IMG/VR virus record: IMGVR_UViG_3300020439_000004
Span: 32,001 to 96,000 of that record
DNA length: 64,000 bases
Reading direction: 5' to 3' (one strand)
Origin: a virus
Shown here: in pieces, positions 28,809 to 61,401 of the stretch
Numbering within the stretch: position 1 is the stretch's first letter
Layout: every line of letters starts with the position of its first letter
Position numbers and translations under genes: made by a program
Notes under the pieces: generated by a model
Told to the model about the DNA's origin: nothing
Databases searched by the model: none
The model's input: only the letters and a program-made list of their open reading frames with translations

Positions 28809-30185
28809 ATGTCAACGAGCGGAGTACAATATGCAATAAATCATAATTTTACCAGCAATGACCCTTTGTTGATTTATTATGATTTTTCTAGTGGAACAGG
28901 AACAGCTCTTTCTTTTACAAGTGATGTAGACGCAAGAGTAGACAACCAAGAGCCAGCAGTAAATACAACTCCATACGCTGGAGTTATAATAAATTCTAGA
29001 GCTGGAACAGAAACAGCCGCAAAGACATATGCAACTGGAGCATTTTTAAGCGAAAATAAGGCTAGATTAAGTGCATCAAATATCAAAGTTGATGCATCTA
29101 ATTTAAACTTTAATTCATTAACTGCTATATTTGATTTTGAGTTTGATACTGCACATCCCGTAACTGGTGGAGTTTTATTTGGAGCCTTAGAAAAAACTCT
29201 TGAGACTATTAATGGAGAAATTATAACAGGATCTAAAGGGTATAATTTTGGAATAACTGATAGAGGTAAACTCTACTATCAAGGCTTTGATCGTCATGGA
29301 GATTTTATACATGTCGCATCAGAAATTGAGCTATCTAAAAGAAATTTAATATCTTTTTCTTTAGATTCTAATACTTTAGAAGTGGCTAGAGTTGATTATC
29401 TTAACGAAAAAATACATAGTCAAAACTATACTCTAGATACTTCTTTTATAGCTAACTCAGATAACTTTTACTTAGGAGGGTCAAATACCTTTTACAAAAC
29501 ATCAAGTCCAAGTGACACAACGTTTAGTGGTTTCATAAATGAGTTCGCTTTGATTTCAGGGTACATTTCTACTGATATTGTTAAAAGTATAGGCAGTGGA
29601 ATGATAGGGGAGTACTTCTTCAGCTCAGGAGCTGCAACTACTAAAGAACAAATCACAGGTTATTCAGAAACAATAATTTATAAAACTGGCATCACTGGAT
29701 ACGACTTCAATCAAACTGGTCTTCTTACAATAACCACAGGAAGAGATATGCAAACAGGATCGTTTGCTTCAGATTCTACAAGCTCTATTAACGAAGGGGA
29801 TAAATATTTTAAATTTTATACTTTAGATAATGGCGATGTAAAAACATTTTATAAAGAAGAGATTGGATTTTTAGATCCTGATTCTGGTTTTAATTATGCT
29901 CCAACAGGTTCTGGAGCGTTCGCTACTTTAGGTTTGAATAATATTACTGGAGTTATAAACACTTTTGCAGAAACAACTGGTGTTGATGATGCTGGCAATA
30001 TTACAATTAAACTTTACGAGAGTATAGTTCAAACAGGAACATTAAATGAAATAAGCGGTATAACTACAACAGCTCTAACAGAAACAATCAACGTGCCAGC
30101 TATTCCAGTATCAGGAATAACACTATCAGGAAACTCTGAAGACTTAAAGAAAGATTACATCTACTATATGGGACAAAGGCTATGA
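28809..30185 (+). CDS. tail protein with LamG/ConA-like N-terminal domain
   Basis: LLIYYDF...FYLGG...FSGFINEFALISG LamG-like pattern; many [ST]G dipeptides. Confidence 0.6.
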   Translation: MSTSGVQYAINHNFTSNDPLLIYYDFSSGTGTALSFTSDVDARVDNQEPAVNTTPYAGVIINSRAGTETAAKTYATGAFLSENKARLSASNIKVDASNLNFNSLTAIFDFEFDTAHPVTGGVLFGALEKTLETINGEIITGSKGYNFGITDRGKLYYQGFDRHGDFIHVASEIELSKRNLISFSLDSNTLEVARVDYLNEKIHSQNYTLDTSFIANSDNFYLGGSNTFYKTSSPSDTTFSGFINEFALISGYISTDIVKSIGSGMIGEYFFSSGAATTKEQITGYSETIIYKTGITGYDFNQTGLLTITTGRDMQTGSFASDSTSSINEGDKYFKFYTLDNGDVKTFYKEEIGFLDPDSGFNYAPTGSGAFATLGLNNITGVINTFAETTGVDDAGNITIKLYESIVQTGTLNEISGITTTALTETINVPAIPVSGITLSGNSEDLKKDYIYYMGQRL

Positions 30186-31003
30186 TATACAATTACATAT
30201 TTTCTACAGGTGATGCCACTATATCAGGATGCACTCTTTCTGGTTATAGCGGGCAGAAAGATAATTCATCAAGTTTTCAAGACAACTTCTATTATAACTC
30301 TGCACTAATAACAGGTTTAAAGAATATGAAGTTAGCCTCCAATGGACAAACTTTATATGAAGAAGGACCGATTGAAACTGAGGCAACAAATGAAACTGTA
30401 TATCAAATATTATCAGGAGATTTCTTTTTAAAGACTGGTGCTGTTGATCAGTTTGATAGGAATAAACTTTTTGGAGATTCTACAACTCCATTCAAGTCTA
30501 CATATAATGTTTCATATGAAAAATACACTGGCAAATCAGCCGTAGGTCTAGGAAGCGCTGCTGCTGAGCTTGGGCCAGCACTTAAATCAGGTATAAGTGG
30601 AATTGAAACAGCTTTGAATTTTGAAGATTATGAATATTTCTTGAATGGTCAAAAAGTATACTCTGGAGTAGGTGTTGGGGTTTCTGCTGGAGTTGGAACT
30701 CAGTTTATGTTGAATTTTGATAGCTCTAGTTATGGAGGAATAATTACAACAGCTAATAAATCAAATTTTAAAGGTTTTGCTTTTATAAAGCAGGGTAGAA
30801 CAAATGACATAACAGGGGAGAATCCTGATGTGTATGGGACAGGATTTGTAGAAGATCAAACATCTTTTTACTTAAATGGAGTAAAAGAGTCTGATGATAT
30901 GTATCTAGAAATGTATACAGGTGTAACTATTGTAAGAACAGGTGTGTCTGCTGGGGTTTTTGCCTTTGGAGTACCCACTGAAACAGCAAGTGTGAGCTTA
31001 TGA
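30182..31003 (+). CDS. tail protein
   Basis: repeated (Y/F)LNG(Q/V)K motifs; [ST]G-rich. Confidence 0.55.
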   Translation: MIYNYIFSTGDATISGCTLSGYSGQKDNSSSFQDNFYYNSALITGLKNMKLASNGQTLYEEGPIETEATNETVYQILSGDFFLKTGAVDQFDRNKLFGDSTTPFKSTYNVSYEKYTGKSAVGLGSAAAELGPALKSGISGIETALNFEDYEYFLNGQKVYSGVGVGVSAGVGTQFMLNFDSSSYGGIITTANKSNFKGFAFIKQGRTNDITGENPDVYGTGFVEDQTSFYLNGVKESDDMYLEMYTGVTIVRTGVSAGVFAFGVPTETASVSL

Positions 31004-33690: not shown

Positions 33691-33692
33691 TA

Positions 33693-34466
33693 TCAACCTT
33701 GAGCTTTTCTAATAAGAGCTATAAGTATTCTGCACTCTTTGGCGGGAACATCATTAAAGCTGTTCCAGTCTTTTATGTCTTCATTCTTGTAGGTTTCACT
33801 CTTCCACAAAGTTCTTAGATAATTTTTAAAGTCATCAAAGTCAGTGATATTTAAAACTTCTGCTAAAGTTTTTTGTAATGTTCCAGTAGGTGTGATTGCA
33901 AAAATTTGAGAAGCTTGTCCTGATTTCTTTTGTATTGGGGTCTTGTTTTCAGATTTATCTATCTCATCTGCTCCAACAATATGAACGCCTAGATAATTTC
34001 TAACGCATCTTACAAAAGCTCTATTGCAAGCAATAGTTTCTAGGAATTTAGCGCAGAAAGAATCCGTGTTATCTAAGGTTGCATTTGCTGTATCTGAGTA
34101 AATTACAGAATATTCAGAGACAGACTCATAGTTATTACACCAAGTTATAGTACATTTAGCTACAACATATTCTTCTGTAACATTAGTTACATCAAAGTTG
34201 ACTGATGTATATCCTCTGAGTTTTGCTAATTCCTTTATACCTCCTAGCATTACTAAGAGTTGATTATCTTTCAATCCTTCAGTGCTAGTAGGAACATCCA
34301 TTTTCCTAGCCTCAAACCAATCTTTATTAGCATAAAGATATTCAGGCTTGATCATAGCCCGCCAATTTACAGATCCATCATCATTAAACTTGTAATCTAC
34401 ATTTTCTAATAAACCATGAATATCCCTCTTGTAGATATCGGGACCGTAAATCTTCTTTTTAGTCAT
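33693..34466 (-). CDS. single-strand annealing protein-like (Rad52/Sak-like)
   Basis: VVAKCTITW...ETIACNRAFVRCVRNYLGV...GADEI resembles the SSAP 'AETRAxxRA' core. Confidence 0.5.
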   Translation of the reverse strand: MTKKKIYGPDIYKRDIHGLLENVDYKFNDDGSVNWRAMIKPEYLYANKDWFEARKMDVPTSTEGLKDNQLLVMLGGIKELAKLRGYTSVNFDVTNVTEEYVVAKCTITWCNNYESVSEYSVIYSDTANATLDNTDSFCAKFLETIACNRAFVRCVRNYLGVHIVGADEIDKSENKTPIQKKSGQASQIFAITPTGTLQKTLAEVLNITDFDDFKNYLRTLWKSETYKNEDIKDWNSFNDVPAKECRILIALIRKAQG

Positions 34467-35583
34467 CAACGGTATTATAAATCATAAGCCAATCTAAGTC
34501 AACAAATAAATCATTCTCATTTTTTCTTTCATTCCTATCATAATGACTTTCATAAATATTATTGCCGCAAATAATCTTTTTTCTGCTTTTTATTTTTAAT
34601 GAATTTAAATTAACTCCTTCTAGTAATTTTTTATTGGTTTTTATGATTTCGGGTTTTTTATTTTGATGTATGAGATAATCAAAGAATTTTACTCTTTCTT
34701 TATCTATGTTTTTACTGTCTGTACATACTAGGGTTGTTTCTAGCCCAGATTTCTTAAGAAGATCTACAAAGTCTTTATCAAAAGAATCAGCTTCATAGGT
34801 AATCCTCTGTATTCTTTTTGACATTAATATGCTAGCATCTATTGGATTTTTTGTTGTAACTTCTGCGGGAGTAAATTGTAGAATTTTGCTTAGTGCATCC
34901 TCATTGTGAGCCAAGTCCATTCTTATTGAAACAGGGCCGCCTTGAAAATTAGTTGGCTGTGATGGAACAACTTCAATACAATTAAATATTGATCTTGGCC
35001 CCATATAAATAGTTTCTTCTTTTATATTTTTATCTATCTCTAAAACATCAAGAACTGCTTGAGCTATTTTTTCTGGTTTGATTAAATTAATTGTTTTTGG
35101 GTTTTCTTCTAAAGCAAAAGATGGCCTTCTACCATCTCTATCGGATTCTATTGTTATAGCTTTACTTTTTTTATTCCACAAAGGGTCGCAAGTATTTGCA
35201 TAAGTGTGTGAGTATATCCCAACAACAGGCTTATCAAAAGCAGAAGCTAGGTGAACTGGAACGCTATCAATCCCTACATGACCTAGTGATTTTTGAATAA
35301 TGTAGCTACTTTGTTTTAAAGAAAAAGTTGGAATATGTCTGTCTACACCTTCTATAGTTTCTTCTCCAAAAGCTCCTATTTGTATTATTTTTATATCTCC
35401 TAGATGCGGCTTTAATAGTTCAATAACTTCTGGCCAAAAATTATATTCTTTAGCTTGAACTTTTTTGTCATTGTGGATTGTAATGTATTTATCAAAGGGT
35501 ACAGGAAAGAAGTGAGGCTTTATTACAGGCTTTCCTATTCTAACTCCGCAAGATTTTGCATATTCTTCTGCTAAATGACTCAT
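34459..35583 (-). CDS. GT9 (heptosyltransferase-like) glycosyltransferase
   Basis: KEYNFWPEVI...HVGIDSVPVHLASAFDKPVVGIY. Confidence 0.78.
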   Translation of the reverse strand: MSHLAEEYAKSCGVRIGKPVIKPHFFPVPFDKYITIHNDKKVQAKEYNFWPEVIELLKPHLGDIKIIQIGAFGEETIEGVDRHIPTFSLKQSSYIIQKSLGHVGIDSVPVHLASAFDKPVVGIYSHTYANTCDPLWNKKSKAITIESDRDGRRPSFALEENPKTINLIKPEKIAQAVLDVLEIDKNIKEETIYMGPRSIFNCIEVVPSQPTNFQGGPVSIRMDLAHNEDALSKILQFTPAEVTTKNPIDASILMSKRIQRITYEADSFDKDFVDLLKKSGLETTLVCTDSKNIDKERVKFFDYLIHQNKKPEIIKTNKKLLEGVNLNSLKIKSRKKIICGNNIYESHYDRNERKNENDLFVDLDWLMIYNTVDD

Positions 35584-37301
35584 CTTAATTTAAATTGTGT
35601 TTTATCTTTTCCGTTGTGCGTATAGCTGTATGTTCTTTGAGTTGTTGCATGAGGAAAGAATGCTATATCAAAATATCCTTGATTATCCCCTCTGCCTTCA
35701 AGCACATAACAATTATCTATTTGTGGTTGATAGGGTAAAACCTTTTCTAAGTCAGGATTGTCATCAATCATGTGAAAATACTGAGGTTTAGTAAAGACAT
35801 AAATCTTTTTATCTGGGTAAAGTTTTTTTACATTATGTATTAGTGAGTTTATCATTAACACATCCCCAGCAGAGTCAGGCATTACAATAGCTAGTCTGTC
35901 TTCTTGTTTTGTATCTCCCAGTACATCCTCTAAGCTTGGAGTTTTTTGTTCTTCTTTTTTAACCTCATCTATTGCTAAAGGTTTCTTTAAGGAAAATAAA
36001 ATATGTTTTAGTTTGTTAGCTATAACTGGAATTGAGAATGTATTTTGTACATACCTAATTCCATTGGTTGTAATTTTATATTTAATAGCTTCATCCATCA
36101 TATAAACCTTTTTTAATTTTGCGGCTATATCAAAAGGACAAGTTGAAGCTTTTACAAATTGTGTTTGAGGTTCTCTATACTCATTCCATTTTAAAGGGAG
36201 TCCTCCTTGATCCTCGTAGCACGAATCAGTACCACAAGAATATTCAGTGACTAATGTAATTAAACCCGCAGCCTTTGCTTCTTGAATCGGCAGTTCTTGG
36301 CCTCCACTTGTAAAAGGATGACAATATACATCCATGCAGTTGTATATTTCATTTAGTTGAATTTCAGTAACACCCTTTCCGCTAGTCTTTGTCTTTAATT
36401 GTTTTTCAGCTCCACAAGCTGGACATTTTAATTCCTCGCCCTGATATGGCTGAACATGGTAATGATCACATTTATGACAAAGATAGGTTGCTAAGACATC
36501 TTCCTTGTCTACATTTTTCTCTTTTAAGTATCTTGGAATATCCCAACCTTGACCTACTTCAGACCAGTCGGTGTGAAGTAATAGCTTTGGTTTAGATTGA
36601 GGATTTTTTTCTTTAAACTTTCTAAAACCATCAAGTAAATTTGGTACTGATTTTCTAAGTTGATTTTTAAAAACAAACCCAATGACATAATTATCAGAAA
36701 GATTAAATCTTTTTCTTATATCGTCTCTATTATCAAGAGGTTTAAAGTTTGTATAATCAACAGCGCCATGAAGAGTCTCAACATTTTTATGACCAAGCTT
36801 TTTCATTTCTTGCTCTGCAAACGATGCCCATACTAGCATTTTATCGCAGTGAGGTTCCATTTGTAATGCTTGATCTAAAATTGGAACACTATCTAAAGTT
36901 GTCCAAAGAATTTTATTTATTTTATTCCACCAAGGTTTTTGTTCGTATTGAGGAAAAGCCCAGATATCTTCCACTCCAATATATACATCAGGCTTGCAGT
37001 CTTCTACAATTTCATCTATGGCATAACCTCCATAGGCATTGTATCTATCTTTTAAAGGGTCTCCTTGTATCTGTTGTAATATATTTGGATCTTGATTTAG
37101 AGTTCCATAAGATTTCCAAGGTGTTAAAAGTTCGGTTCCATATCTTATGCCGTTAGCAGCTTCAAAAACTTCTATCCTTGGATCTTCATGTAAGGCTAAT
37201 AGTATATTTCTGGCATTTTTGCCAAAACCTGTAACCATCCTAGAATGGTTAGAATGAAATAAAACTTTTAGTTTTTTAGAAGGGGACTTCTTCGTCATCA
37301 T
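35580..37301 (-). CDS. GT4 glycosyltransferase with zinc-ribbon insert and C-terminal GT9-like N-domain
   Basis: RKSVPNLL, GGQELPIQEAKAAG; CHKC...CPAC; AGDVLMINSLIHNVKKLYPD...DNPDLEKV. Confidence 0.8.
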   Translation of the reverse strand: MMTKKSPSKKLKVLFHSNHSRMVTGFGKNARNILLALHEDPRIEVFEAANGIRYGTELLTPWKSYGTLNQDPNILQQIQGDPLKDRYNAYGGYAIDEIVEDCKPDVYIGVEDIWAFPQYEQKPWWNKINKILWTTLDSVPILDQALQMEPHCDKMLVWASFAEQEMKKLGHKNVETLHGAVDYTNFKPLDNRDDIRKRFNLSDNYVIGFVFKNQLRKSVPNLLDGFRKFKEKNPQSKPKLLLHTDWSEVGQGWDIPRYLKEKNVDKEDVLATYLCHKCDHYHVQPYQGEELKCPACGAEKQLKTKTSGKGVTEIQLNEIYNCMDVYCHPFTSGGQELPIQEAKAAGLITLVTEYSCGTDSCYEDQGGLPLKWNEYREPQTQFVKASTCPFDIAAKLKKVYMMDEAIKYKITTNGIRYVQNTFSIPVIANKLKHILFSLKKPLAIDEVKKEEQKTPSLEDVLGDTKQEDRLAIVMPDSAGDVLMINSLIHNVKKLYPDKKIYVFTKPQYFHMIDDNPDLEKVLPYQPQIDNCYVLEGRGDNQGYFDIAFFPHATTQRTYSYTHNGKDKTQFKLR

Positions 37302-37839
37302 CTTCGTCTATTTGGGGTTCTTTTTGCGCTGGTTTTTTATACTCTTTTTTAGGCACTGTGGAAGATTCAAATGACTGTTTTATAAATTCTTTTAGTAGTT
37401 GAGCTAAAACTTCAACTTCTCCAGCCTCAAGAGGTATCCTAAATATTTGTGTAGAATTTCTAGTTATATTAATACCAAAGGCTGGTGTTTCATACCATTT
37501 GTCTCCATCTTTTTCTTTTACTTTTCGCTTTTTATCCCAAGGCGCGAATTTAATTATTGTTGTATCTTGATCTTTTTTATGGAATGCAACAAAAGGTATT
37601 CTATTTTTAAATGAAGATAAGATTTCACCTGCCTCTATAAGCGATAAAGCTGTAGTAGCAGATTTCTCAGGGTTTTTTGCATTCTCCTTGAAAGAGCCTG
37701 TTTTTCTGTCATCATTCCAGCTAAATTGCTGGATCATTGAAACAAAAAGTACAGGTTTGCCATTATTGCCTTTGTTGATGGAAAAGCTGAAAGCTGCACC
37801 TTGATTTTTAGAGTTTGGCTTATAAAGAGTAAAATTCAT
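37276..37839 (-). CDS. ssDNA-binding protein, Whirly/PC4-like fold with acidic tail
   Basis: Whirly-like motifs (see findings); C-terminus DEDDDEEVPF. Confidence 0.65.
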   Translation of the reverse strand: MNFTLYKPNSKNQGAAFSFSINKGNNGKPVLFVSMIQQFSWNDDRKTGSFKENAKNPEKSATTALSLIEAGEILSSFKNRIPFVAFHKKDQDTTIIKFAPWDKKRKVKEKDGDKWYETPAFGINITRNSTQIFRIPLEAGEVEVLAQLLKEFIKQSFESSTVPKKEYKKPAQKEPQIDEDDDEEVPF

Positions 37840-37877
37840 TGAATTAGTGTAAAGTTATTTAGATAATCTATTGTAGT

Positions 37878-38633
37878 ATGGCATTTAATAAAATTCAACC
37901 TGAACAGATACAATTAGCGACTTTTTTCAGTTCTTCTGGAGATATTTCTATAGATCAAACTGACACTGGGGTTGGTTTAAATTTATCTAGAGAAATTACT
38001 GGGGATTTTTACTTAACTGGACATACTTCTAATCCTCTTGTTATCAATAAGAGACCTGTATTTAGCATGCCTATAACTGGCACAAATACTATAGATGATT
38101 TTACTAGCGGCACTTTTGTTTTCAATGGGGCTGGCAATACTGTAAGTGGTACAAGAAATATGGTTATTAATGGTGCTAGTAATGTATTTACAGGAAATGG
38201 TGTTGATAATGTTGTTGTAAATGGAGCTTCTAGTGATTTTGGGTCAGGTACAAATAGTTGTACAAGTTTAGCTGGAGATGGGGCTGACTTTGCCAATCAA
38301 ATTACAGGAGCTGTAATAATAACTGATGTTACAACTAGCACTCCTGCTGCAATATCAAATCATTCAATGTTGATAGATTTTGATTCTGGAACCTTTTTCG
38401 CTGGCGGGGATGTAAGGTTTTCTACAGATATAAATGTAGCTAGCGCCTCTTCTGGAATGTTCTCTGGAGACTTGAATGTTATTGGAGATACGTTATTGGG
38501 AGAAAATTTTAGAATGCCTCTTTTTTCAGGTCAAACAGTAGTGGCTGATTCTGGGCAAATGATGTTTTCTGGAGGTAGACCGATTTTCCATGACGGAACT
38601 TCTTGGGTCGGAATAACTACAGAACCTATTTAA
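37878..38633 (+). CDS. virion structural protein, beta-helix-like, [ST]G-rich
   Basis: NGAGNTVSG/NGASNVFTG/NGASSDFG repeats; FHDGTSWVGI C-terminus; lone plus-strand gene with a GTGTAA motif upstream. Confidence 0.6.
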   Translation: MAFNKIQPEQIQLATFFSSSGDISIDQTDTGVGLNLSREITGDFYLTGHTSNPLVINKRPVFSMPITGTNTIDDFTSGTFVFNGAGNTVSGTRNMVINGASNVFTGNGVDNVVVNGASSDFGSGTNSCTSLAGDGADFANQITGAVIITDVTTSTPAAISNHSMLIDFDSGTFFAGGDVRFSTDINVASASSGMFSGDLNVIGDTLLGENFRMPLFSGQTVVADSGQMMFSGGRPIFHDGTSWVGITTEPI

Positions 38634-39019
38634 TCAAATTCAACCTTAACGTCTTTAGTCTCAAAGGTTTTCTTTTGACCAAGTTCTGATGTGTGTTTTT
38701 TGCCACCTGTAGCTTTTGAATAATTTTCAAGCGCTTTTTGCTTTACTGGATCTACGCCTCCATTAATTTCTGCTCTCCGTTCACTAAGTTCTGCTGAATA
38801 GTCCAATAGATCGCCTACAGTACCTTTCATATTGGCCGTCTTTTCAACATAGTTATTTGCACTAAAAGGATCATCACTGGCTGATATGGCCATATTTGGA
38901 GCAAAAAAGACCCTTTCCCACTCAACACCATCTTTGGAGTAAGTATGAGGGTCATTCATAGATTGAACAACTTCCTCATACTCCTCCTCGGTAGGGTGTT
39001 TGTAGATGTAAATAGGCAT
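38630..39019 (-). CDS. FmdB-like small protein (Cys-less)
   Basis: MPIYIYKH N-terminus. Confidence 0.5.
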   Translation of the reverse strand: MPIYIYKHPTEEEYEEVVQSMNDPHTYSKDGVEWERVFFAPNMAISASDDPFSANNYVEKTANMKGTVGDLLDYSAELSERRAEINGGVDPVKQKALENYSKATGGKKHTSELGQKKTFETKDVKVEFD

Positions 39020-39351
39020 TAATCAACAGAGATTTCTCTTCTCTCACTTACACATTTTTTAGGCAATGTGATTGTAAGTAGTCCGTCTTTTGTAGTTGAT
39101 TTGATATGATCAACTGAGACAGCTCCATATAAATTTAATTTTAATTCCTTTTCACGGCTATCATTTTTAGCTTTAACTTCTAAAACTTCGTTTGTAGCAG
39201 TGATAGTGATGTCATCTTTTGAAAATCCAGCAAGCTCTGCTTCAGCTACATAGACATCTCCAGATTCTTTCATTGTTATATAATTCTTCGTCGTATTTCC
39301 AAATACATCAAAGAGTGAGTCGTATAAATGGGTGTTTAATTTGTAATTCAT
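39019..39351 (-). CDS. small heat-shock protein (Hsp20/alpha-crystallin)
   Basis: AELAGFSKDDITI...DGLLTITLPK; start probably ATG 39351. Confidence 0.88.
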   Translation of the reverse strand: MNYKLNTHLYDSLFDVFGNTTKNYITMKESGDVYVAEAELAGFSKDDITITATNEVLEVKAKNDSREKELKLNLYGAVSVDHIKSTTKDGLLTITLPKKCVSERREISVD

Positions 39352-39386
39352 AATACTTATATTATTAACATAATTTGTGCCATAAC

Positions 39387-40475
39387 TCAAACACTGTATA
39401 TACAGTCTAAGATAGAATCTATGGTCTTTTTATAGGTAAATTTGTCACGCAATTTTGTCCCTTCTGTGTTAATTTGTCCCACTTTTTCTTCTGCTTTTTC
39501 CATAGCAGAGAGTATAGCTTTACCATCTAATTTGTAATATTGTCCTTGATTGAATGGAGCGCCCTCTTTGAAAAACAAGTTATCATAACAAGGTTGCTTT
39601 CCTATGGGATCTACAAGTATGGCGTTGTCTTTTGTGGCCCAATCTTTATGTGAACTACAGTTACTTACTAAAGACCATTTACCCAAAGCTGTAGCGTTAA
39701 ATGCGGGTAAATTCCAACCTTCGCCATTTGATAAGCCAGATAAATCAATATCAATATTGTTCATTAATATATTCACCTCTTCGTTTGTTTTAAGATGAGG
39801 TAAAAAATTAATATTACTCCAATGTTGATTCATTGTAGAGCTATTAATAGCCTGTTGCATTTGCTCTTGATTTAAAAAAGAATTATTTACCAAGCAACTC
39901 AACTGATATTTAGGATTATTGCCATATTTATTCAGCCATAATTGTATCAAAGCTTGAGTATTTTTTCTTCTTTCAAACTTTCCAATCAACCCAAAATGAA
40001 TAACTTCTTTATCAAATTCTTTTGGTATTTCTTTAAAGTCTGGGTCAAAACCAAGAGGTACTGCGGAGACGTTTGTGCAGCCTTTTTGCTTAAATGCATC
40101 GGCAGCTTCCGTTGAAGAAAAGAAAACGTGTTTCTGCATTTTAACAATGTTAACTTCCTCTGTTGTTGGAGAATCTAATTCATAAAAAGTATATAGATAT
40201 TGATTTTGACCTAATGTTTTTTCTGATCCATTTAAGTGCCAAAGTTTTAAAGTGGGAGTATCTTTATCAAGTTTTGCTAGCCTTTGTGCCGCGATTGAGG
40301 ATGTCCATTGTTTAAAATCATCATCAATAGTATTGAAAGCTGAAAAATCTCCTTGATCTCCTATAGGATGAAGACTGATATCAATATCTTGCTCCTTTAA
40401 AACTCTTAAAAAGTTTATAGAAACATTACCAAAGCTCAATGCATTTATAGGAGCTTCAAAGTTTAATTTTTTCAT
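39387..40475 (-). CDS. GT4 glycosyltransferase
   Basis: GKFERRKN, SNGEGWNLPAFNA. Confidence 0.8.
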   Translation of the reverse strand: MKKLNFEAPINALSFGNVSINFLRVLKEQDIDISLHPIGDQGDFSAFNTIDDDFKQWTSSIAAQRLAKLDKDTPTLKLWHLNGSEKTLGQNQYLYTFYELDSPTTEEVNIVKMQKHVFFSSTEAADAFKQKGCTNVSAVPLGFDPDFKEIPKEFDKEVIHFGLIGKFERRKNTQALIQLWLNKYGNNPKYQLSCLVNNSFLNQEQMQQAINSSTMNQHWSNINFLPHLKTNEEVNILMNNIDIDLSGLSNGEGWNLPAFNATALGKWSLVSNCSSHKDWATKDNAILVDPIGKQPCYDNLFFKEGAPFNQGQYYKLDGKAILSAMEKAEEKVGQINTEGTKLRDKFTYKKTIDSILDCIYSV

Positions 40476-41082: not shown

Positions 41083-41115
41083 AAATAAAAAAAATCAACT
41101 TTTTTTTGATTTTTG

Positions 41116-41290: not shown

Positions 41291-41348
41291 ATAAAAATAA
41301 TTAATTGACATACTTCTCTCGTCGTATAAGCTCGTGTAAATTTACGCA

Positions 41349-44158: not shown

Positions 44159-44224
44159 TCAGGGATTAAGCTCCTTGAGGTCATAGTATGCCTCTGGGTC
44201 AAATAATTTTTGGCTCAGAGGTTT
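44159..44224 (+). ncRNA. structured RNA / leader with two hairpins
   Basis: TCAGGGA/TCCTTGA and CCTCTGGGTCAAA/TTTGGCTCAGAGG stems after TTGAAA-16-TAAAAT. Confidence 0.4.
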
Positions 44225-44836
44225 ATGATTACTTTTGCTATAACTGTCGCAGATGAACTTTTTGAATTTAAAAGGCTTATAAATTCTTTACAGCCTTACG
44301 TTTATCCACAAGAAGAGATTGTTGTACTTGCAGATAAAAATAAAGTTACAAAAGAAATAGAGGAACATTGTGATTTATGTGGATTAAAAATTAATTTTTT
44401 TAATTTTCAAAATGACTTTTCTGAGTTTAAGAACGAGCTTTTTAATCTATCTACAAAGGATTATCTATTCCAAATTGATGCTGACGAACAAATACCCCCA
44501 TCTCTTATACATATATTAAGACAAGTAGCCTCTCAAAAGAAAGTTGATTTGCTTTGGATTCCTAGAATTAATATAGTTCAAGGCGCTACTGAAGAAGATA
44601 TAAAAAATTTCAACTGGAACATAAATGAGCTGGGATGGGAGGGCTTTCCAGATTTTCAATCTAGGTTTGTTTCAACTAAAGGTGATATCAGATGGAAGAA
44701 TAAAGTACATGAAATTTTAACTGGCGCTAAAAATCAAGCTAGGATAGAAGAAAAACCAATAGAACTTTATTCTATTCTTCATGTGAAGCATATAGATAAA
44801 CAAAAGAAACAAAATAATTATTATGACACAATCTAA
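44225..44836 (+). CDS. GT2 glycosyltransferase
   Basis: DFSEFKN, QIDADE (DxD), PDFQSR, KVHE; start ATG 44225. Confidence 0.82.
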   Translation: MITFAITVADELFEFKRLINSLQPYVYPQEEIVVLADKNKVTKEIEEHCDLCGLKINFFNFQNDFSEFKNELFNLSTKDYLFQIDADEQIPPSLIHILRQVASQKKVDLLWIPRINIVQGATEEDIKNFNWNINELGWEGFPDFQSRFVSTKGDIRWKNKVHEILTGAKNQARIEEKPIELYSILHVKHIDKQKKQNNYYDTI

Positions 44837-45641
44837 GATTTTAGTAAGGGCGGAAGGAGGATTAGGTGATTGTTTATTAGCAAATAGGTTTATACCTGCC
44901 ATAAGAGAGAAGCATCCAAACTCTGAAGTCACCTTTGCGTTAGATAACGATAGAGGTGAAACATTTCAGTTAGATGTTCTTTACCATTTCTACAAAAGAA
45001 TGAGTGATACTTACTCTTTTTTTGCTGATCATAATCCTGATGACTTTGATTATTTTTATGATCTACATATAGATAAAATGCTTTGGACTACTTATGACTT
45101 TGATTGGTTAAGTAGATTTTATTATTTTCCAAAACCAAAAGTAAAAATAGAAAAGCAAGATTATGTTTGTTTGCATTTAACTCATAATAAATGGCCTCCT
45201 AAAAATTTGCCTAAATATTATTTAGATCAAGTAGTCAAATCAATTAAACAGGTGGCCCCTTCGGTAAAAGCTATATGCACTGAATCTGAAATAGGTTCTT
45301 ACTGCAATATTCTTACTGAGGATGAGATAGTTTGTGGAGATATAGTTACGGCTTGTGAAACTGTTGCTGGCGCAAAGGCATTTGTAACAATAGACTCAGG
45401 ATTTAAATATATAGCTTATGCGTATGGTGTCCCAACAATAGAAACAGCAGACTACTATACAGATGTAGGGCAAATTCACCCAATGATAAAAGCTAGGTGG
45501 TTGCCATTTAATGAAAGAGGATTGCCTTTATTATGTAATGTTGATTTTTTTAAAGTGGCTCTATATAATATCTTCAATAATAAAATTTCTACAATTTTTC
45601 CATTCTTTAGCAAAAACGAAAATATTTTTAAACTATCATGA
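44823..45641 (+). CDS. GT9-like glycosyltransferase
   Basis: GGLGDCLL...AIREKHPNSEV; FVTIDSGFKYIAYAYGVPTI. Confidence 0.75.
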   Translation: MTQSKILVRAEGGLGDCLLANRFIPAIREKHPNSEVTFALDNDRGETFQLDVLYHFYKRMSDTYSFFADHNPDDFDYFYDLHIDKMLWTTYDFDWLSRFYYFPKPKVKIEKQDYVCLHLTHNKWPPKNLPKYYLDQVVKSIKQVAPSVKAICTESEIGSYCNILTEDEIVCGDIVTACETVAGAKAFVTIDSGFKYIAYAYGVPTIETADYYTDVGQIHPMIKARWLPFNERGLPLLCNVDFFKVALYNIFNNKISTIFPFFSKNENIFKLS

Positions 45642-46324
45642 CAGAGTCACAAAACTTAAAACTCCAGCAAATTGAAATGAATATAGGAGGAGTCGGAATT
45701 AGCTGCTTTGACTTTCCAACAAGTATGACTCCCTATGGAACAAAAGAAGTGATATTGGGAAATAAATTTAAATTTGATGAAGTGGATATAGGAGAAGGTG
45801 ACAATTATGTTGAAGTAGGCGCTCATAATGGACTGTTGGCTTTTTATGTAGCTAGAATTTTTCCTAAAGCGAATATACATATTTTTGAGTGTAACCCTGT
45901 TATGGTTACAGCAATCAACTATGGTATTGCAGTAAACGGGTTTAGTAATATCAGATGTTATCCATTTGGTTTAAGCAACTATAATGGAAATTGTGATTTT
46001 GGTGTCAACTTGGAGAATACAGGAGGGTCAAGTATGCTTATACATGATGGGCATCATGTAAAAAATCAGAAAGTTAAAGTTTTAGATTTTGAAACCGTGC
46101 TATCAACTTTTGATAATATTAAATATTTAAAAATAGACATTGAAGGAGAGGAATTTAAAATATTTAGTAGTTTAATTTCTAAAGATTCTAAATTTTTTGA
46201 TAGAGTTTCTACATTAAATTTAGAATTACATGATGAGATATATCCAGATCTAAATTTAGACAGAAAAGGTATAAAAGAATATCTATCAACATATGATGAT
46301 TTAAATATTATATATCAAGATTGA
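45638..46324 (+). CDS. FkbM-family methyltransferase
   Basis: VEVGAHNG, FECNP, LKIDIEGEE. Confidence 0.88.
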   Translation: MTESQNLKLQQIEMNIGGVGISCFDFPTSMTPYGTKEVILGNKFKFDEVDIGEGDNYVEVGAHNGLLAFYVARIFPKANIHIFECNPVMVTAINYGIAVNGFSNIRCYPFGLSNYNGNCDFGVNLENTGGSSMLIHDGHHVKNQKVKVLDFETVLSTFDNIKYLKIDIEGEEFKIFSSLISKDSKFFDRVSTLNLELHDEIYPDLNLDRKGIKEYLSTYDDLNIIYQD

Positions 46325-47391
46325 TGAAAAAAGTAATAGTTACAGGTGTTACAGGCCAAGATGGTAGTAATATGGTTGATTATCTCTTGAGAGAGACTGA
46401 TCACATTATAATTGGCGGAGTAAGAAGACTTAGTGTTAAAAATCATCAGAATATTGAACACTTAGAAAATGAAGATAGATTTTTCTTAATTGACTTAGAT
46501 GTAACTGATGCTCAAAACACTGATGAGGTAATAGCTGAACATAAGCCAGATTATTTTATTAATTTTGCCGCTAATTCTTTTGTTGGAACAAGTTGGAAAA
46601 TGCCAACTCAACACATGGAGACAAATGCTTTAGCTGTACTACATCAACTTGAAGCTATAAAAAGACATTGCCCTGATTGTAGATATTATAATGCAGGATC
46701 TTCTGAAGAGTTTGGAGATGTAATCTGCACACCTCAAAGTGAACTGCATCCATTAAGACCTCGTAGTCCATATGGAGCTTCTAAATGTTCAGCTAGACAT
46801 TTAGTAAAAGTTTACAGAGACTCTTATGACCTATACGCTGTTCAAGGTTGGCTTTTCAATCACGAAGGAACAAGGAGGGGTGAAGAATTTGTGACTCGAA
46901 AAATAACTAAAAATGTCGCTCGCATTTCTTTTGAGTACTCTAAAGAAAAAACCTTTAAACCTTTAGTTCTTGGAAATGTTGATTCAAAGCGAGATTGGAG
47001 TGATTCTGAAGATTTTATGGATGGTATATGGAGAATGTTAAATCAAGATGATTTTGATTCTTATATAGACAACAATTATAAACCAAAGGAATATGTGCTT
47101 TCTTCTGATGAAACTCACACAATAAGAGAGTTCGTTGAAGAGGCTTTTCATATAGCTGGCTTTCATAGATCCATGTGTCGCTGGGAAGGCAAAGGAGTGC
47201 ATGAAAAATATTATCATGGAGATGATCTACTAGTAGAAATTAGTGATAAATTTTACAGACCTGCTGAAGTTGACTTGCTTTATGGTGATTCTTCTAGAGC
47301 GAGAAAAGATTTAGAATGGCAGCCTAAAACAGATTTTACAGGTTTAGTGACTAAAATGGTAAAATATGATTTAGAGCTTGCAAAATCTTAA
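46324..47391 (+). CDS. gmd: GDP-mannose 4,6-dehydratase
   Basis: TGVTGQDGS, PRSPYGASK, FNHEG, FVTRKIT, RDW, YRPAEVDLL. Confidence 0.95.
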   Translation: MKKVIVTGVTGQDGSNMVDYLLRETDHIIIGGVRRLSVKNHQNIEHLENEDRFFLIDLDVTDAQNTDEVIAEHKPDYFINFAANSFVGTSWKMPTQHMETNALAVLHQLEAIKRHCPDCRYYNAGSSEEFGDVICTPQSELHPLRPRSPYGASKCSARHLVKVYRDSYDLYAVQGWLFNHEGTRRGEEFVTRKITKNVARISFEYSKEKTFKPLVLGNVDSKRDWSDSEDFMDGIWRMLNQDDFDSYIDNNYKPKEYVLSSDETHTIREFVEEAFHIAGFHRSMCRWEGKGVHEKYYHGDDLLVEISDKFYRPAEVDLLYGDSSRARKDLEWQPKTDFTGLVTKMVKYDLELAKS

Positions 47392-47406: not shown

Positions 47407-47411
47407 CTGGC

Positions 47412-49403: not shown

Positions 49404-49404
49404 T

Positions 49405-53240: not shown

Positions 53241-53243
53241 GAT
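53215..53243 (+). promoter_or_regulatory. sigma70 promoter TTGACA-17-TAAGAT, leaderless GTG 53250
   Basis: 6 nt before the GTG. Confidence 0.65.
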
Positions 53244-53249
53244 TTAAAA

Positions 53250-57131: not shown

Positions 57132-59453
57132 ATGGTTCAATTACCCTTTACTCCACATATAGAAGGTGTTCTTCAGAAGTCTAAAGATTTATCTGTAATC
57201 TTAGAAAGAAACGGCGTTGATTTAGATATATTGTTTCACTGTTTTATTAGTGACTTGAGTTTATCTTGCATTTCTATATTTAAGAAAATTGGAGTGGATG
57301 GAGGTGAACTGATAAAAGACTCAAGAAATATTTTACATAAAAAGAGAAAAAACAAAAATATATCTGATAAGTTCAAAACAGATGCTAGAAAGTTTTTAAA
57401 GTTTTGCGAGAAGCTTTGTAAAGACACTTACTCTTTGGATTATATTCCGCCAGAGGTAATGTTGATGAATTTTTTTGATGAACAATTCACCCCTAAAGTT
57501 CTAAAAGAGTCTTTTCCAGAAGGAGTAGAAGCTGCTGATAGCGTAAGGTTTGGCATAGTTGCAGAATGTGCTTTAGTTATAAAAGACTTTGAAGCAGAAA
57601 AGATAGAATCAAGACTAAAAGAGCTTGAGGAGACTCCTGACAACTGGATAGACATGTTTGACAATAATGAAATATTGTCTCAGTTTGCAGAGAATCTTAA
57701 TGCAAAAGCGGCGGCTGGTGAATTTGATAAGATTGTAGACTATGATGGGAAGATTGATGAGCTTGCAACTATTTTGTGTCGCAAAAAGAAACCAAATGCG
57801 ATATTGGTTGGCCCTGCTGGCACTGGCAAAACTTCATTAGTAGAAGGGTTAGCAACAAAAATAGCAGCAGGAGATGCTCCAGAGCTTATAGCTAATAAAG
57901 TAATTTATTCTGTTAGTTTATCTAGCATGGTTGCTGGTACTGAGTACAGAGGTCAATTTGAAAAGCGGCTAGAAGATTTTGTAAATGAAGCTAAAAAATA
58001 TACAAACTTAATTTTATTTATAGATGAGATACACACTTTGATTGGAGCAGGGGGAGCTAATAACAATTCTCTTGAAGCTTCTAATATTCTAAAGCCAGAA
58101 TTGGCTAGAGGAACAATAAGTTGTATCGGTGCTACAACTATAAATGAGTATACAAACACAATAAAGAAAGATACTGCTCTTGATAGAAGATTTGAAAGGG
58201 TTGTAGTAAAAGAGCCTTCTAAGTTTCAGATGGAGGAGATTTTACCTACTATTGTTTCTTATTATGAAACATTTCATGGTGTGGAATATAGCGATGAATT
58301 TTTAAATAACATCATAAAATATTGTGAAAAATATACTCCAAATAAATATTACCCAGATAAAGCTATTGATGTTATAGATCATTGTGGCGCTCAAGCAAAA
58401 GTTACATATTGGGATGTAAAACCATCTATCAAAGAAATGCAGACAGAGATAGTTGAATCTGCACTTCATCCAGAAAAAGATCATTCTGCTTTAATAGAGA
58501 AGCTTAATAAAAGTTTGGAAAAATGGGTTGAGTCTGATGAAACTGCAAATAAACCAGAGGTAACCCGTTTTCACTTAAAAGAATTTTTTGATAGAAAGGT
58601 CAATCCTTTAAATAAAAAAAATAAAATAAATAAAGTGTTTGATTGTTTTTCTAAATCTTTTGTAGGTCAAGCAGATATCCTAGAAGAGTTAAAACATGAA
58701 ATTATTTTAAGTAGTATTGGTGTTAGAACTACTAGAAAATTTTCTACTCCAGAATGTTACGTTATCAGCGGTGAAGAATCTAGTGGTAAATCGCTGTTTT
58801 GTGAGCTATTAGAAGACTCTCTACAAAAGCATGGAGTAAATGTTTTATCTTATAATGGTATTCATTTTTCAGATAATTTTTCTCCACATAAAATTGCATC
58901 CTCCCAAGGTAACAACACTTCAATATGCGAAAAGATTGTTATAACTCCTAATAGTGTTTTAATTATAGATGACTTTCATAAGATAGATAAAACTGCTGTA
59001 CCTATTTTTAATCAGATACTTAAAGAGGGTAAGATTCAGATGAATAATGGAGATGTTGCAGATTTTTCAAATTGTAAAATCTTTTTAACAAGCTGCTTAT
59101 CTCACACTAGTCAACTTGGCTTCAATATAGAAAGATCCCGCAATGATGACCCCCTCATACATAAAGATATTTATTCTTTGGTTAAGAACTCTTTTATTTT
59201 AAATGAATTAAAAACAAAAGATTTGCGTAGAATTTTATGGAACAAACTTAGAAACATAAAGGCTAATTTAGAAGACAATGGGGTCTATTTAGATTTTACT
59301 GTTAAATATATTTCTAATAATGTAGAAAAGATAAAAGATGAAGCGTCTCCGATTAAAAGCTTGAATGAATTAGTAGCATCAAAGATTAAGCCATTCATCT
59401 CTGAATGTATCTCTAATGGTAATGATAAAATAAAACTTTTTGTTGAAAAATAA
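57132..59453 (+). CDS. ClpA/ClpC-like AAA+ chaperone with degenerate second ring
   Basis: GPAGTGKT, AGTEYRGQFEKR, FIDEIH, GATTINEY, PDKAIDVID; second domain GEESSGKS / IDDFHK. Confidence 0.9.
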   Translation: MVQLPFTPHIEGVLQKSKDLSVILERNGVDLDILFHCFISDLSLSCISIFKKIGVDGGELIKDSRNILHKKRKNKNISDKFKTDARKFLKFCEKLCKDTYSLDYIPPEVMLMNFFDEQFTPKVLKESFPEGVEAADSVRFGIVAECALVIKDFEAEKIESRLKELEETPDNWIDMFDNNEILSQFAENLNAKAAAGEFDKIVDYDGKIDELATILCRKKKPNAILVGPAGTGKTSLVEGLATKIAAGDAPELIANKVIYSVSLSSMVAGTEYRGQFEKRLEDFVNEAKKYTNLILFIDEIHTLIGAGGANNNSLEASNILKPELARGTISCIGATTINEYTNTIKKDTALDRRFERVVVKEPSKFQMEEILPTIVSYYETFHGVEYSDEFLNNIIKYCEKYTPNKYYPDKAIDVIDHCGAQAKVTYWDVKPSIKEMQTEIVESALHPEKDHSALIEKLNKSLEKWVESDETANKPEVTRFHLKEFFDRKVNPLNKKNKINKVFDCFSKSFVGQADILEELKHEIILSSIGVRTTRKFSTPECYVISGEESSGKSLFCELLEDSLQKHGVNVLSYNGIHFSDNFSPHKIASSQGNNTSICEKIVITPNSVLIIDDFHKIDKTAVPIFNQILKEGKIQMNNGDVADFSNCKIFLTSCLSHTSQLGFNIERSRNDDPLIHKDIYSLVKNSFILNELKTKDLRRILWNKLRNIKANLEDNGVYLDFTVKYISNNVEKIKDEASPIKSLNELVASKIKPFISECISNGNDKIKLFVEK

Positions 59454-59475
59454 AATTATTAGTAGATCATAAAGT

Positions 59476-59646
59476 ATGAGCGGCTCAGTAGCTAAGAAAA
59501 TAAGAAAATTAGTTGGGTATCATCCAAAAAATGAAAATCCAATGATAAAAAAACTTTACAAGAAACTAAAAGGGCGTTATTATGCCCTTGGACCTTCTGC
59601 CTTTTGGAAAAGTGTTGAAGGTAAATTTAATTCTAATAACTCATGA
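59476..59646 (+). CDS. 56-aa basic protein (MSGSVAKKIRKLVG...)
   Basis: read by hand; its TGA overlaps the ATG of 59643. Confidence 0.6.
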   Translation: MSGSVAKKIRKLVGYHPKNENPMIKKLYKKLKGRYYALGPSAFWKSVEGKFNSNNS

Positions 59647-59858
59647 GTGATACAAATACAAAAACTAACGACGAATGGAAAAAGCGCGAACTAGGCGCTC
59701 TTTGGCGAGTTGAAGGTAGAAACCAATCTTTCTATAGTGGAGAGATTGCTTTATCTGACGGTTCAAAGCAGAAAATCGTCATCTTTAAAAATAAATTCAA
59801 AGAGCAAGGCACTAAACAGCCTGATCTAAGAATTTATCAGAGCATGGATACTGAGTAA
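59643..59858 (+). CDS. DUF736-like small protein
   Basis: ELGALW...YSGEI...IVIFKN...KQPDLRIY. Confidence 0.55.
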   Translation: MSDTNTKTNDEWKKRELGALWRVEGRNQSFYSGEIALSDGSKQKIVIFKNKFKEQGTKQPDLRIYQSMDTE

Positions 59859-60079
59859 TGGATGCTGAAAAACAAGAAGAGTTAAAAGCTCTTTTAGTAT
59901 CTGAAATGGTATCTAGAATCACGGTAGCGGAGGCTGTCAATATAATGCACAACATCGCTATTTCGGAAGTCGATAAAAATATCGCAAAAATGTCTGATGA
60001 GGAGAAACTCTCAGCTTTGGAGGAACTTACAAAAAGAGTAAATCCTTCTGAAGAAAATGAGTCAAATTTGGAAATTTAA
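59858..60079 (+). CDS. hypothetical protein
   Basis: 73-aa coupled ORF. Confidence 0.65.
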   Translation: MDAEKQEELKALLVSEMVSRITVAEAVNIMHNIAISEVDKNIAKMSDEEKLSALEELTKRVNPSEENESNLEI

Positions 60080-60095
60080 GTGTAAGACACAGAGA

Positions 60096-60572
60096 ATGCC
60101 TTATACTCTTTCTTTTTTAGATCAAAAATTATATACCAGTTTATCTTTTGATGCTGATATAAAATTTCCTGAGTCCAGTGACTTTGTTAAGAGGTTTTGG
60201 ATTTTGAAGGAATATAAAAAAGTAAGTTCAGATTTGGAGCTTTCAGAGTCTAAAGATTCTGACAAACAAATGACAAGCTCTTCTTCTTATGAGATACACA
60301 AAAGGTTTCAAGGCGATGAACTTATCGTTGAGATAGTTCAAAGCCTTGCTTTTTGTGAAGAATTTGATTATTTTAGCAAGGCAGATTTTGATTTGCCTAC
60401 AGGAGATGAAGAATTAGATAAAATGCTTACCGATATAAAAGATTCTGATTTTGATGAATCAGTTATAAAAGCTTGTATCTTAGATAGTGTGCTTCAAGGC
60501 AACTATCCTCAAAATCCTGATGACGAACCAAAAGAGGAAGAAGAAGAGTCCTCTGAGGAACCAAGTGAATAG
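60096..60572 (+). CDS. acidic hypothetical protein
   Basis: start moved to ATG 60096, 10 nt after GTGTAA. Confidence 0.6.
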   Translation: MPYTLSFLDQKLYTSLSFDADIKFPESSDFVKRFWILKEYKKVSSDLELSESKDSDKQMTSSSSYEIHKRFQGDELIVEIVQSLAFCEEFDYFSKADFDLPTGDEELDKMLTDIKDSDFDESVIKACILDSVLQGNYPQNPDDEPKEEEEESSEEPSE

Positions 60573-61401
60573 AGTTTTAATAACTGGAGCTGGCGGTTTT
60601 ATAGGAGGTAACTTAGCCGCATATTTAGAAGCTTGTGGCTTTCAAGTTACAAGATTTGATATATCTTTAGGTAACACTGGTTATCCAGATATTTTTAATC
60701 AAGATTTTGTTATTCATCTTGGTGCAAATTCAAGCACTACAGAAACCGATCTAAAAAAAATATTAGATCAAAACTTTGAATACTCGGCCAACCTTTACAA
60801 GATGTGCGAGGCTTATGAGATAAAGTTTCAATATGCTAGTAGCGCATCTGTTTATGGCGCATCTAAAACTTTCAAAGAAGATGAGTTTTGTAAACCATTA
60901 AGTCCTTATGCTTTTAGCAAGTATATGTTTGACTGTTGGTTAATGAATCAAGAATATCCATACCAAGGTTTTAGATATTTTAATGTGTACGGTTTGGGTG
61001 AAGATAAAAAAGGAAAGCAAGCTAGTCCTGTTTCAAAATTTATAAAAGAAGCGCAGACAGGCGGTAAGATAAAAATCTTTGAGAAAAGCGAAAAATATAA
61101 AAGAGATTTTGTTTCTGTAGATGATGTGTGTGAAATGCACTACAAGCTTTTGGCAAATGACGCTTCAGGAATATTTAACATAGGTACAGGTGAGCCTATC
61201 TCTTTCAGAGATGTAGCAGAGATAATAAAAGAAAATTCTAACTCTGAGATAGAAGAAATACCAATGCCCAAAGAGCTAAAAGGGCAGTATCAAAAATTTA
61301 CAAAAGCTGATATATCAAAGCTAAATGAAATAATTGGTGATTATGAGTGGAAAAGTGTAAGTGAATATGTAGAAGAAAACATTGATGCTTTCCTTAATTA
61401 A
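60565..61401 (+). CDS. hldD: ADP-L-glycero-D-manno-heptose 6-epimerase
   Basis: ITGAGGFIG, HLGANSSTTE, YASSASVYG, PYAFSK, FRYFNVYG..E.KG.QAS, RDFV, YQKFTKAD; GTG start 60565. Confidence 0.85.
   Translation: MNRVLITGAGGFIGGNLAAYLEACGFQVTRFDISLGNTGYPDIFNQDFVIHLGANSSTTETDLKKILDQNFEYSANLYKMCEAYEIKFQYASSASVYGASKTFKEDEFCKPLSPYAFSKYMFDCWLMNQEYPYQGFRYFNVYGLGEDKKGKQASPVSKFIKEAQTGGKIKIFEKSEKYKRDFVSVDDVCEMHYKLLANDASGIFNIGTGEPISFRDVAEIIKENSNSEIEEIPMPKELKGQYQKFTKADISKLNEIIGDYEWKSVSEYVEENIDAFLN

Follow-up and report, generated by a model that had tools for sequence, protein, structure and literature searches.

The question raised by this locus is whether a phage that carries a large set of sugar genes uses them to glycosylate its own virion. 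The DNA analysed, called here the window, is a stretch of 64,000 nucleotides that corresponds to bases 32001-96000 of the 108,942-bp contig IMGVR_UViG_3300020439_000004, which comes from an uncultured marine tailed phage; coordinates are window positions, and genes are named by their lower coordinate in Table 1. A preliminary description had proposed that five glycosyltransferases (GTs), an ADP-heptose 6-epimerase (HldD), a GDP-mannose dehydratase (Gmd) and an FkbM-type methyltransferase modify the tail and neck proteins at the dipeptide Ser/Thr-Gly ([ST]G). The analysis reported here leaves as the most likely single explanation, although tentatively and with less than even confidence, that a conserved split transferase complex of the phage adds a sugar, probably heptose, to hydrophobic-[S/T]-Gly sites in the phage's own tail tip.

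It is clear that [ST]G is over-represented in a small number of proteins. When [ST]G and the reverse dipeptide G[ST] were counted against the expectation from composition, using 2000 shuffles for each protein, four proteins only (27193, 28809, 30182 and 37878) carried [ST]G at 2.2-2.5 times the expected count. The z values across the four are 5.7 (28809), 5.1, 4.0 and 3.7, and the observed count was reached in 0 of the 2000 shuffles, while G[ST], for which the preliminary description had called for this comparison, gave z values of -1.7 to 0, i.e., no enrichment. The hand counts made at that time for 37878 (16 in 251 residues), 30182 (15 in 273, with 3 G[ST]), 28809 (25 in 458) and the capsid protein 11932 (3 in 381) proved exact. 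As had also been noticed, 37878 is the gene densest in [ST]G and lies on the plus strand between two minus-strand gene groups, and the dipeptide is often preceded by a hydrophobic residue, which occupies position -1 in 52% of the sites against 31% in the background, with Ile 3.4-fold over-represented. Over residues 241-441 of 28809, one site follows another at intervals of approximately 10 residues. The wider claim, that virion proteins in general are enriched, was narrowed to these four proteins, one of which (27193) was absent from the earlier list and is presumed to be a virion protein from the position of its gene after that of the tape measure protein. The neighbouring tail proteins 25652 (z -2.5) and 31000 (z -2.2) are, like the large fibres and the tape measure protein, neutral or depleted, and the tube-region proteins reach a z of only about 2. 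Two large fibre-like proteins of 868 and 1804 residues (genome 431-11287, L040) have the opposite bias, with 28 and 52 G[ST] against 14 and 27 [ST]G, indicating that the tag is not common to all fibres of the phage.

When the four proteins are pooled, TG (41 observed, 17.2 expected) and SG (41 observed, 18.1 expected) are the two most deviant of all dipeptides, and Ser or Thr precedes 82 of the 157 glycines, while D-G (0.34 times the expected count), G-G and P-G are depleted. The DNA pattern that encodes the dipeptide is found almost only in the reading frame (64/0/4 and 18/0/3 by frame) and uses mixed Ser and Thr codons, indicating that selection acts on the protein and ruling out a DNA-level motif as the cause. 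Replacement of Pro-Gly, which cannot be encoded without the sequence CCNGG, is also ruled out as the main cause, because Pro-Gly would account for a few percent of the glycines against an excess of about 30%, and because the excess is confined to four proteins whereas avoidance of CCNGG is genome-wide. A generic turn of the [DNST]-Gly type is ruled out by the depletion of D-G and the near absence of Asn and Asp before conserved glycines.

This last point emerges from the relatives of the phage, which were collected in three scans of IMG/VR with the families of 37878, of the 573-residue transferase 35580 and of 27193, giving about 170 loci, all of one clade. [ST]G stands at 2.2-2.8 times the expectation in these four families across about 30 non-identical relatives (26-55% identity), compared with 0.64-0.83 for control families of the same loci. 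Single sites are retained in 61-78% of the homologues against a mean identity of 42-63%, with approximately half of them conserved at 80% or more, and a Ser or Thr that precedes Gly stays Ser or Thr in 60-77% of cases against 33-56% for other Ser and Thr residues. At 34 conserved-Gly sites (33-48 homologues) the preceding residue is Thr in 57% and Ser in 34%, that is, one of the two in 91%, with Asn at 1% and Asp at about 0%, and 16 of the 34 sites hold both Ser and Thr. Given that a generic turn would accept Asn or Asp, these alignments indicate that it is the hydroxyl group that is kept by selection.

The four families are mutually unrelated in profile-profile comparison (hhalign, probability <1%), and so is an [ST]G-rich family of 300 residues found in distant relatives, so that the motif cannot be put down to a single fold or repeat common to all of them; the signature acts in trans. 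Distant members of the clade have no detectable homologues of these tail proteins, yet [ST]G-rich structural proteins adjoin the same transferase block, for example with 87 [ST]G against 35.7 expected in a protein of 2055 residues, 51 against 23 in one of 996 and 16 against 4.0 in one of 293, and the preference for Ile at position -1 is seen again, although weaker. Among 1061 distinct proteins of at least 150 residues from loci with the transferase block, 119 reach a z of at least 4 for [ST]G and none does so for G[ST], while in the controls lambda, T5, T4, the marine siphovirus P-SS2 and the pelagiphage HTVC008M none of 216 proteins reaches 4, the maximum being 3.4.

The transferase block is centred on 35580 and 34459. 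The former had been described as a GT4 enzyme with a GT9-like C-terminal domain and a CxxC..CxxC insert, and this was borne out. Its GT4-like module matches phrog_2170 at 7.5e-17, with BshA as the best match in the Protein Data Bank (PDB), and contains an invariant CHxC...CPxC insert (C275, C278, C293 and C296), while the GT9 N-lobe at its end holds an invariant S477-A478-G479-D480 and matches positions 10-54 of TIGR02201 and residues 9-66 of 3tov. The two genes named earlier as GT9-like fared differently: the 374-residue product of 34459 matches Pfam PF01075 at 32.8 bits (cut-off 22) over the C-lobe alone, with D106, S107, P109 and H111 invariant, but 44823 falls below the hidden Markov model (HMM) threshold, although both GT9 hallmarks are present in it (G-L-G-D near the N-terminus and D-S-G in the C-lobe). 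For the pair, the fold cut-off is exceeded and the hallmark motifs are found in both lobes, but the lobes do not lie on one chain. Given that they are carried by adjacent genes in every relative, overlapping by 4 bases in all of the approximately 115 loci examined, the sequences point to one GT9 enzyme that is split over two genes. A fused single-chain form was not found among longer proteins, which is weak evidence.

A model of the complex between the two lobes gave an interface score (ipSAE) of 0.72 against 0.00 for the best control, with at least 82% agreement in contacts between runs and a partner model confidence (pLDDT) of at least 83. The mark that it passes is reached by 58 of 80 solved complexes and by 2 of 110 mismatched pairs; nonetheless, resemblance to solved GT9 structures of a single chain may be all that lets the pair pass, which is no proof of binding. 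Profile searches of the PDB with the 374- and 573-residue families found WaaF (1psw, E 0.0064), a GT9 (3tov) and BshA, but not TibC, a missing match that is not decisive at such distance, and single-sequence PDB searches with the transferases and 44823 gave nothing useful. The 573-residue family occurs at 317 IMG/VR loci with 45-70% identity, which is above that of the tail proteins. The four-gene minus-strand block 37276, 35580, 34459 and 33693 is found in every locus with enough flank, in an order that is kept clade-wide; no relative without the transferases was found in the three scans, and the six loci without the pair end at contig ends.

For the donor, a kinase, an adenylyltransferase and an epimerase of the ADP-heptose pathway are all present, each being by far the best family match and all three below the equivalog cut-offs. 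The HldA-like heptose-7-phosphate kinase matches rfaE domain I (1.1e-31), the HldC-like adenylyltransferase matches rfaE domain II (2.6e-39), and the HldD-like protein matches the heptose epimerase model at 2.4e-69 and PDB 1eq2 at 3e-48. In the place of the SIS-fold GmhA and the canonical GmhB there are a 124-residue cupin and a 112-residue HAD protein, which may substitute for them as non-orthologous replacements, or the host may supply these steps. The kinase and the epimerase are also encoded in the 2 of 2 near-complete relatives tested. Because the HldA/HldC/HAD/cupin operon and the HldD-like gene occur together and are shared with these relatives, the gene content makes it very probable that the phage makes ADP-heptose itself. 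In the relative G005 (95850-96656) the HldD homologue carries a single in-frame TAG, which may reflect a pseudogene, a sequencing error or recoding.

The earlier assignments of FkbM, Gmd and the ADP-heptose 6-epimerase agree with the best family match in each case. Those of a further GT4 (39387) and a GT2 (44210) are supported by GT-B and GT-A-like matches, weak for the first and just under the cut-off for the second. GT2, the compact GT9, FkbM and Gmd form a cluster that varies between relatives. None of the sugar genes encodes a membrane segment, and no polytopic membrane protein or flippase-like protein was found in the genome.

Among the [ST]G-rich proteins, 37878 is probably a small fibre or spike, from a family with an invariant N-terminus and a variable C-terminus. 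Its AlphaFold model has low confidence (pLDDT 56.6) and gives fold-class information only. The middle of the model aligns with beta-solenoids, including phage tailspikes and the glycosylated TibA (Z 7.0-8.7, which is middling; for TibA, Z 7.0 and a root-mean-square deviation of 2.9 A over 103 aligned residues of this low-confidence model). The beta-helix-like character that had been attributed to it is, therefore, matched in fold class, that of TibA, by a model of low confidence, in which the [ST]G sites lie at strand-loop boundaries. A search of BFVD with this model returned nothing below E 0.03. Homologues in L029, L030 and L031 (around 9998) have 473-915 residues, with the invariant N-terminus followed by C-terminal extensions that are long and variable, as would be expected if the protein were a receptor-binding fibre open to exchange. 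A spacer of 38 bases (37840-37877) separates the starts of the divergent genes 37276 and 37878, and inside it a late-type GTGTAA motif lies 25 nt upstream of the start of 37878.

In the mechanism proposed for glycosylation of the tail, soluble phage transferases would O-glycosylate Ser or Thr at hydrophobic-[S/T]-Gly, where the hydroxyl residue would open a tight loop after a beta-strand, with the three distal tail proteins and a small beta-solenoid fibre as the targets. The core enzyme is envisaged as a heterodimer of the GT9 N-lobe at the end of the 573-residue protein and the GT9 C-lobe at the start of the 374-residue protein, and the donor would be ADP-heptose supplied by the HldA-, HldC-, HAD- and HldD-like enzymes of the phage, with the GT4 modules and the accessory GT2, GT9, FkbM and Gmd extending or varying the glycan. 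We infer that the transferases act on these tail proteins, that the sugar is heptose and that the motif is what the transferases recognise.

The closest known counterparts are Aah and TibC, of the bacterial autotransporter heptosyltransferases (BAHT), which heptosylate Ser and Thr at the start of a strand-loop-strand in beta-helical autotransporters such as AIDA-I and TibA (PMC3835316, PMC4358343). The preliminary description had given Ser-Gly repeats as their target; this does not agree with the literature, where the motif is the structural strand-loop-strand and no Ser-Gly consensus is reported (PMC3835316). The hydrophobic-[ST]-G pattern fits the strand-loop-strand geometry of their sites. 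The two systems are alike in a soluble, cytoplasmic GT9-fold enzyme with ADP-heptose as the donor (proposed for the phage), in many Ser and Thr residues at loop starts between beta-solenoid strands as would-be targets, in an enzyme gene that adjoins a beta-solenoid substrate gene (here, the candidate 37878) and in a Cys4 metal-finger insert in the enzyme complex. They differ in that the phage GT9 is divided between two genes and joined to a GT4 module, and in that the candidate substrates belong to a phage tail, three of these proteins having no assigned fold, with a clear [ST]G pattern where no sequence consensus is reported for Aah. TibC carries its Cys4 iron-finger insertion in the GT9 C-lobe and has an N-terminal beta-barrel and a beta-hairpin thumb (PMC4358343). 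In the phage pair the Cys4 is in the GT4 module, outside the GT9 C-lobe, which is on the other polypeptide, and no N-terminal beta-barrel or beta-hairpin thumb was identified, as judged without a predicted structure of the full chains. The system may, therefore, work like a BAHT, but by the tests run it is not a member of this family.

Virion glycosylation as such has a precedent in mycobacteriophages, where, according to the summary of Freeman et al. 2023 in PMC10877033, capsid and tail tube are the targets, as shown by mass spectrometry. From that summary, the likeness lies in phage-encoded transferases proposed to modify the structural proteins of the phage itself, and the differences are that here the candidates are distal tail and fibre proteins, that the proposed sugar is heptose from a phage pathway and that the system is known from its sequence. 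WaaC and WaaF, also of GT9, are the best sequence matches of both lobes, in which the catalytic G-D of the N-lobe and the C-lobe D-S-x-P-x-H are kept. Unlike the phage enzyme, which has two chains, they are single-chain enzymes and act on Kdo2-lipid A, whereas the phage N-lobe, of approximately 110 residues, is fused to another transferase and the C-lobe carries an extra domain of approximately 190 residues. A split of this kind is found in the eukaryotic UDP-GlcNAc transferase Alg13/Alg14, a GT-B enzyme in which the two Rossmann lobes are separate polypeptides that become active once associated. The phage pair resembles it in having GT-B lobes on separate chains, and differs in transferase family, in substrate and in the fusion of its lobes to further domains.

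Several observations weigh against glycosylation of the tail by these enzymes. Contrary to the TibC/Aah relationship suggested in the preliminary description, the GT9 parts match WaaF and lipopolysaccharide (LPS) heptosyltransferase models of the WaaF/WaaC type, and not TibC. The genes that flank the pair are probably not sugar genes: the Whirly-like and Rad52-like genes are translationally coupled to it, all four genes being coupled, and the model of 33693 (pLDDT 77) is matched best in Foldseek by RAD52, Mgm101 and Red-beta (E 5e-3 and weaker; VIA Z 5.8-6.5), while a language-model search leads to Sak/Rad52 clusters. In distant relatives the block is the last part of the replication module; it shares a strand with the genes for the primase and Pol III alpha and faces the structural genes in convergent orientation. 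Given this coupling and this placement, expression of the operon in the early or middle stage, together with DNA metabolism, is suggested; promoter analysis is too uncertain to time it. The promoter of the heptose operon is of the host type and not the late GTGTAA motif. Furthermore, the contig G001 and the loci L098 and L119-L121 keep the transferase pair next to tail proteins, adjacent or distal, that are not enriched in [ST]G, although G001 has an [ST]G-rich fibre of 703 residues (z 6.6) away from the block. The clade-level co-occurrence of motif and transferases may trace to a single evolutionary event, and for this reason it is weak as a correlation, and the motif may have a hydroxyl-specific structural role or undergo another modification of Ser and Thr. 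What has been upheld of the proposed virion glycosylation is, therefore, a real, conserved and hydroxyl-selected motif that recurs in the clade with the transferase pair, together with a heptose operon; the GT9 is not TibC-like, the pair shares its operon with recombination-like genes and some members have no motif-rich distal tails.

The alternative that survives best, doubtful but a serious contender, is that motif and transferases are unrelated. The sugars would then be destined for the host envelope, such as the LPS inner core or another glycoconjugate, or for a soluble product, and [ST]G would be a structural device of the lineage, such as a tight turn capped by a hydroxyl in fibre and baseplate proteins rich in beta-structure, or the site of some other interaction. 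The WaaF/WaaC-type similarity of the GT9 lobes is what would be expected of LPS heptosyltransferases, and marine phages commonly carry sugar genes for which a role in altering the surface of the host has been proposed. The variation of the accessory GT2, compact GT9, FkbM and Gmd between relatives is like that of host-interaction genes, but the identity of the core pair over its 317 loci, above that of the tail proteins, is unusual for a host-conversion gene, and the phage encodes no membrane protein, flippase or ligase. Similarly, the relatives that keep the transferases without motif-rich neighbouring tail proteins, and the conservation of about half of the sites at 80% or more and their location at strand-loop boundaries of the low-confidence 37878 model, are compatible with this alternative; however, a purely structural turn should take Asn or Asp before Gly, and both are almost absent, while the motif is found in at least five families unrelated at the profile level and is absent from the 216 control proteins, among which a marine siphovirus and a pelagiphage are represented.

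The third possibility, raised already in the preliminary description, is that the GT-B transferases glycosylate the phage DNA, placing heptose or hexose on a modified base, and that the tail motif is unrelated. Such hypermodification is known from the alpha- and beta-glucosyltransferases of T4, and a pathway reconstituted from metagenomic phage genes, in which a kinase/HAD enzyme and a cytidylyltransferase accompany a BshA/MshA-like GT-B, is reported to make mono- and di-heptosyl-5-hydroxymethylcytosine (bioRxiv 10.1101/2023.12.21.572611). The likeness extends to GT-B, kinase, HAD and nucleotidyltransferase genes near genes of DNA metabolism: BshA is the best solved match of the 573-residue family, and the pair shares its operon with genes like those of single-strand DNA-binding and annealing proteins and adjoins replication genes in distant relatives. 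In this genome, however, a hydroxymethyl- or hydroxy-pyrimidine route appears to be missing: a six-frame search of the whole genome gave no match to a thymidylate-synthase-like hydroxymethylase (PF00303), a C5 DNA methyltransferase (PF00145) or a TET/JBP oxygenase (PF12851), and none of these enzymes was found in Pfam scans of the early genes either. Avoidance of restriction sites is also extreme: CCNGG and CCGG do not occur at all, where about 99 would be expected, and a large number of 6-mer palindromes are missing, such as ATCGAT (36 expected by composition); the relatives are depleted four-fold, whereas the hypermodified T4 is not. This suggests strong restriction pressure from the host, with ScrFI/HpaII-like specificity, and points to DNA that restriction enzymes can read, which makes glycosylation of the DNA very unlikely. 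As a consequence of the lack of CCNGG, the dipeptide Pro-Gly is missing from the entire proteome.

With regard to the source, the first 99 bases of the contig recur at its end (genome 1-99 and 108844-108942) and, given this overlap, it is probably a complete circular assembly, although IMG/VR classes it as linear with a CheckV completeness of 79%. It has 35% G+C and encodes a ribonucleotide reductase, a RecA-like protein, DnaB, a primase, Pol III alpha, a ClpB-like ATPase, PhoH and a sigma factor. Its relatives are uncultured marine contigs; among GenBank phages there was no match in DNA or capsid and no cultured relative was found, and the 573-residue protein matches there, at only 24-25% identity, group-1 transferases of Synechococcus phage S-EIVl and Pontimonas phage phiPsal1. 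In the relative G002 (the contig of L115, approximately 61245-64385) the large terminase is one open reading frame of about 1046 residues, in which the match to the 630-residue terminase of the window is broken after approximately residue 88 by about 430 residues that are intein- or homing-element-like.

Table 1. Positions of the structural, transferase and sugar genes referred to in the text (window coordinates; aa, amino acids; ss, single-stranded).
Position	Strand	Product	Remarks
5821-7713		Large terminase	
21144-25646		Tape measure protein, 1500 aa	
27193-28806	+	Distal tail protein, 537 aa	26 [ST]G, 11.5 expected
28809-30185	+	Distal tail protein, 458 aa	25 [ST]G, 9.9 expected; z 5.7
30182-31003	+	Distal tail protein, 273 aa	15 [ST]G, 6.7 expected; 3 G[ST]
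33693-34469	-	258 aa, last gene of the operon	Lead: Rad52/Sak/Red-beta-like single-strand annealing protein
34459-35583	-	GT9 C-lobe protein, 374 aa	C-lobe at residues 1-185 (nucleotide-sugar side); further domain at 190-374
35580-37301	-	GT4-like GT-B module, Cys4 insert, linker and GT9 N-lobe, 573 aa	N-lobe at residues 465-573
37276-37839	-	187 aa, first gene of the operon	Weak lead: Whirly-like ssDNA-binding protein
37878-38633	+	Protein densest in [ST]G, 251 aa	16 [ST]G, 7.1 expected
39019-39390	-	Hsp20-family small heat-shock protein	Neighbouring minus-strand gene group
39387-40475	-	GT-B (GT4-like) transferase, 362 aa, weak match	47-73% identity across the clade
44210-44836	+	GT2-like (GT-A) transferase	22.6 bits, cut-off 23.3; accessory, in some relatives only
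44823-45641	+	Compact GT9-like protein, 272 aa	HMM E 0.033, below threshold; accessory
45638-46324	+	FkbM-family methyltransferase	Best family match
46321-47391	+	GDP-mannose 4,6-dehydratase (Gmd)	Best match at 1.7e-90, below equivalog cut-off
60487-61401	+	ADP-glycero-manno-heptose 6-epimerase-like (HldD)	234 bits, cut-off 274.6
2.4-4.4 kb past the window end (L039, 2468-4411)		Heptose operon: cupin, HldA-like, HldC-like and HAD proteins	

In its fullest form, glycosylation of the tail would mean that a marine clade of at least 317 IMG/VR contigs O-heptosylates its own tail tip at a hydrophobic-[S/T]-Gly sequon, using a split GT9-GT4 heterodimer and its own ADP-heptose pathway, with a cupin and a short HAD protein in the place of GmhA and GmhB. 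That all of this is correct is unlikely, but if so it would take protein heptosylation beyond bacterial autotransporters for the first time and be the first case of a phage virion glycosylated at a defined sequon, and it would provide a new architecture for protein-glycosylating enzymes together with a short acceptor motif, useful in glyco-engineering. Abundant ocean phages would then decorate their host-recognition apparatus with a sugar coat of their own making, which would matter for adsorption and host range, for their resistance to grazers and proteases and for how readily they stick to marine particles. Even if glycosylation proves to be wrong, a hydroxyl-specific dipeptide that is conserved across unrelated tail proteins needs explaining.

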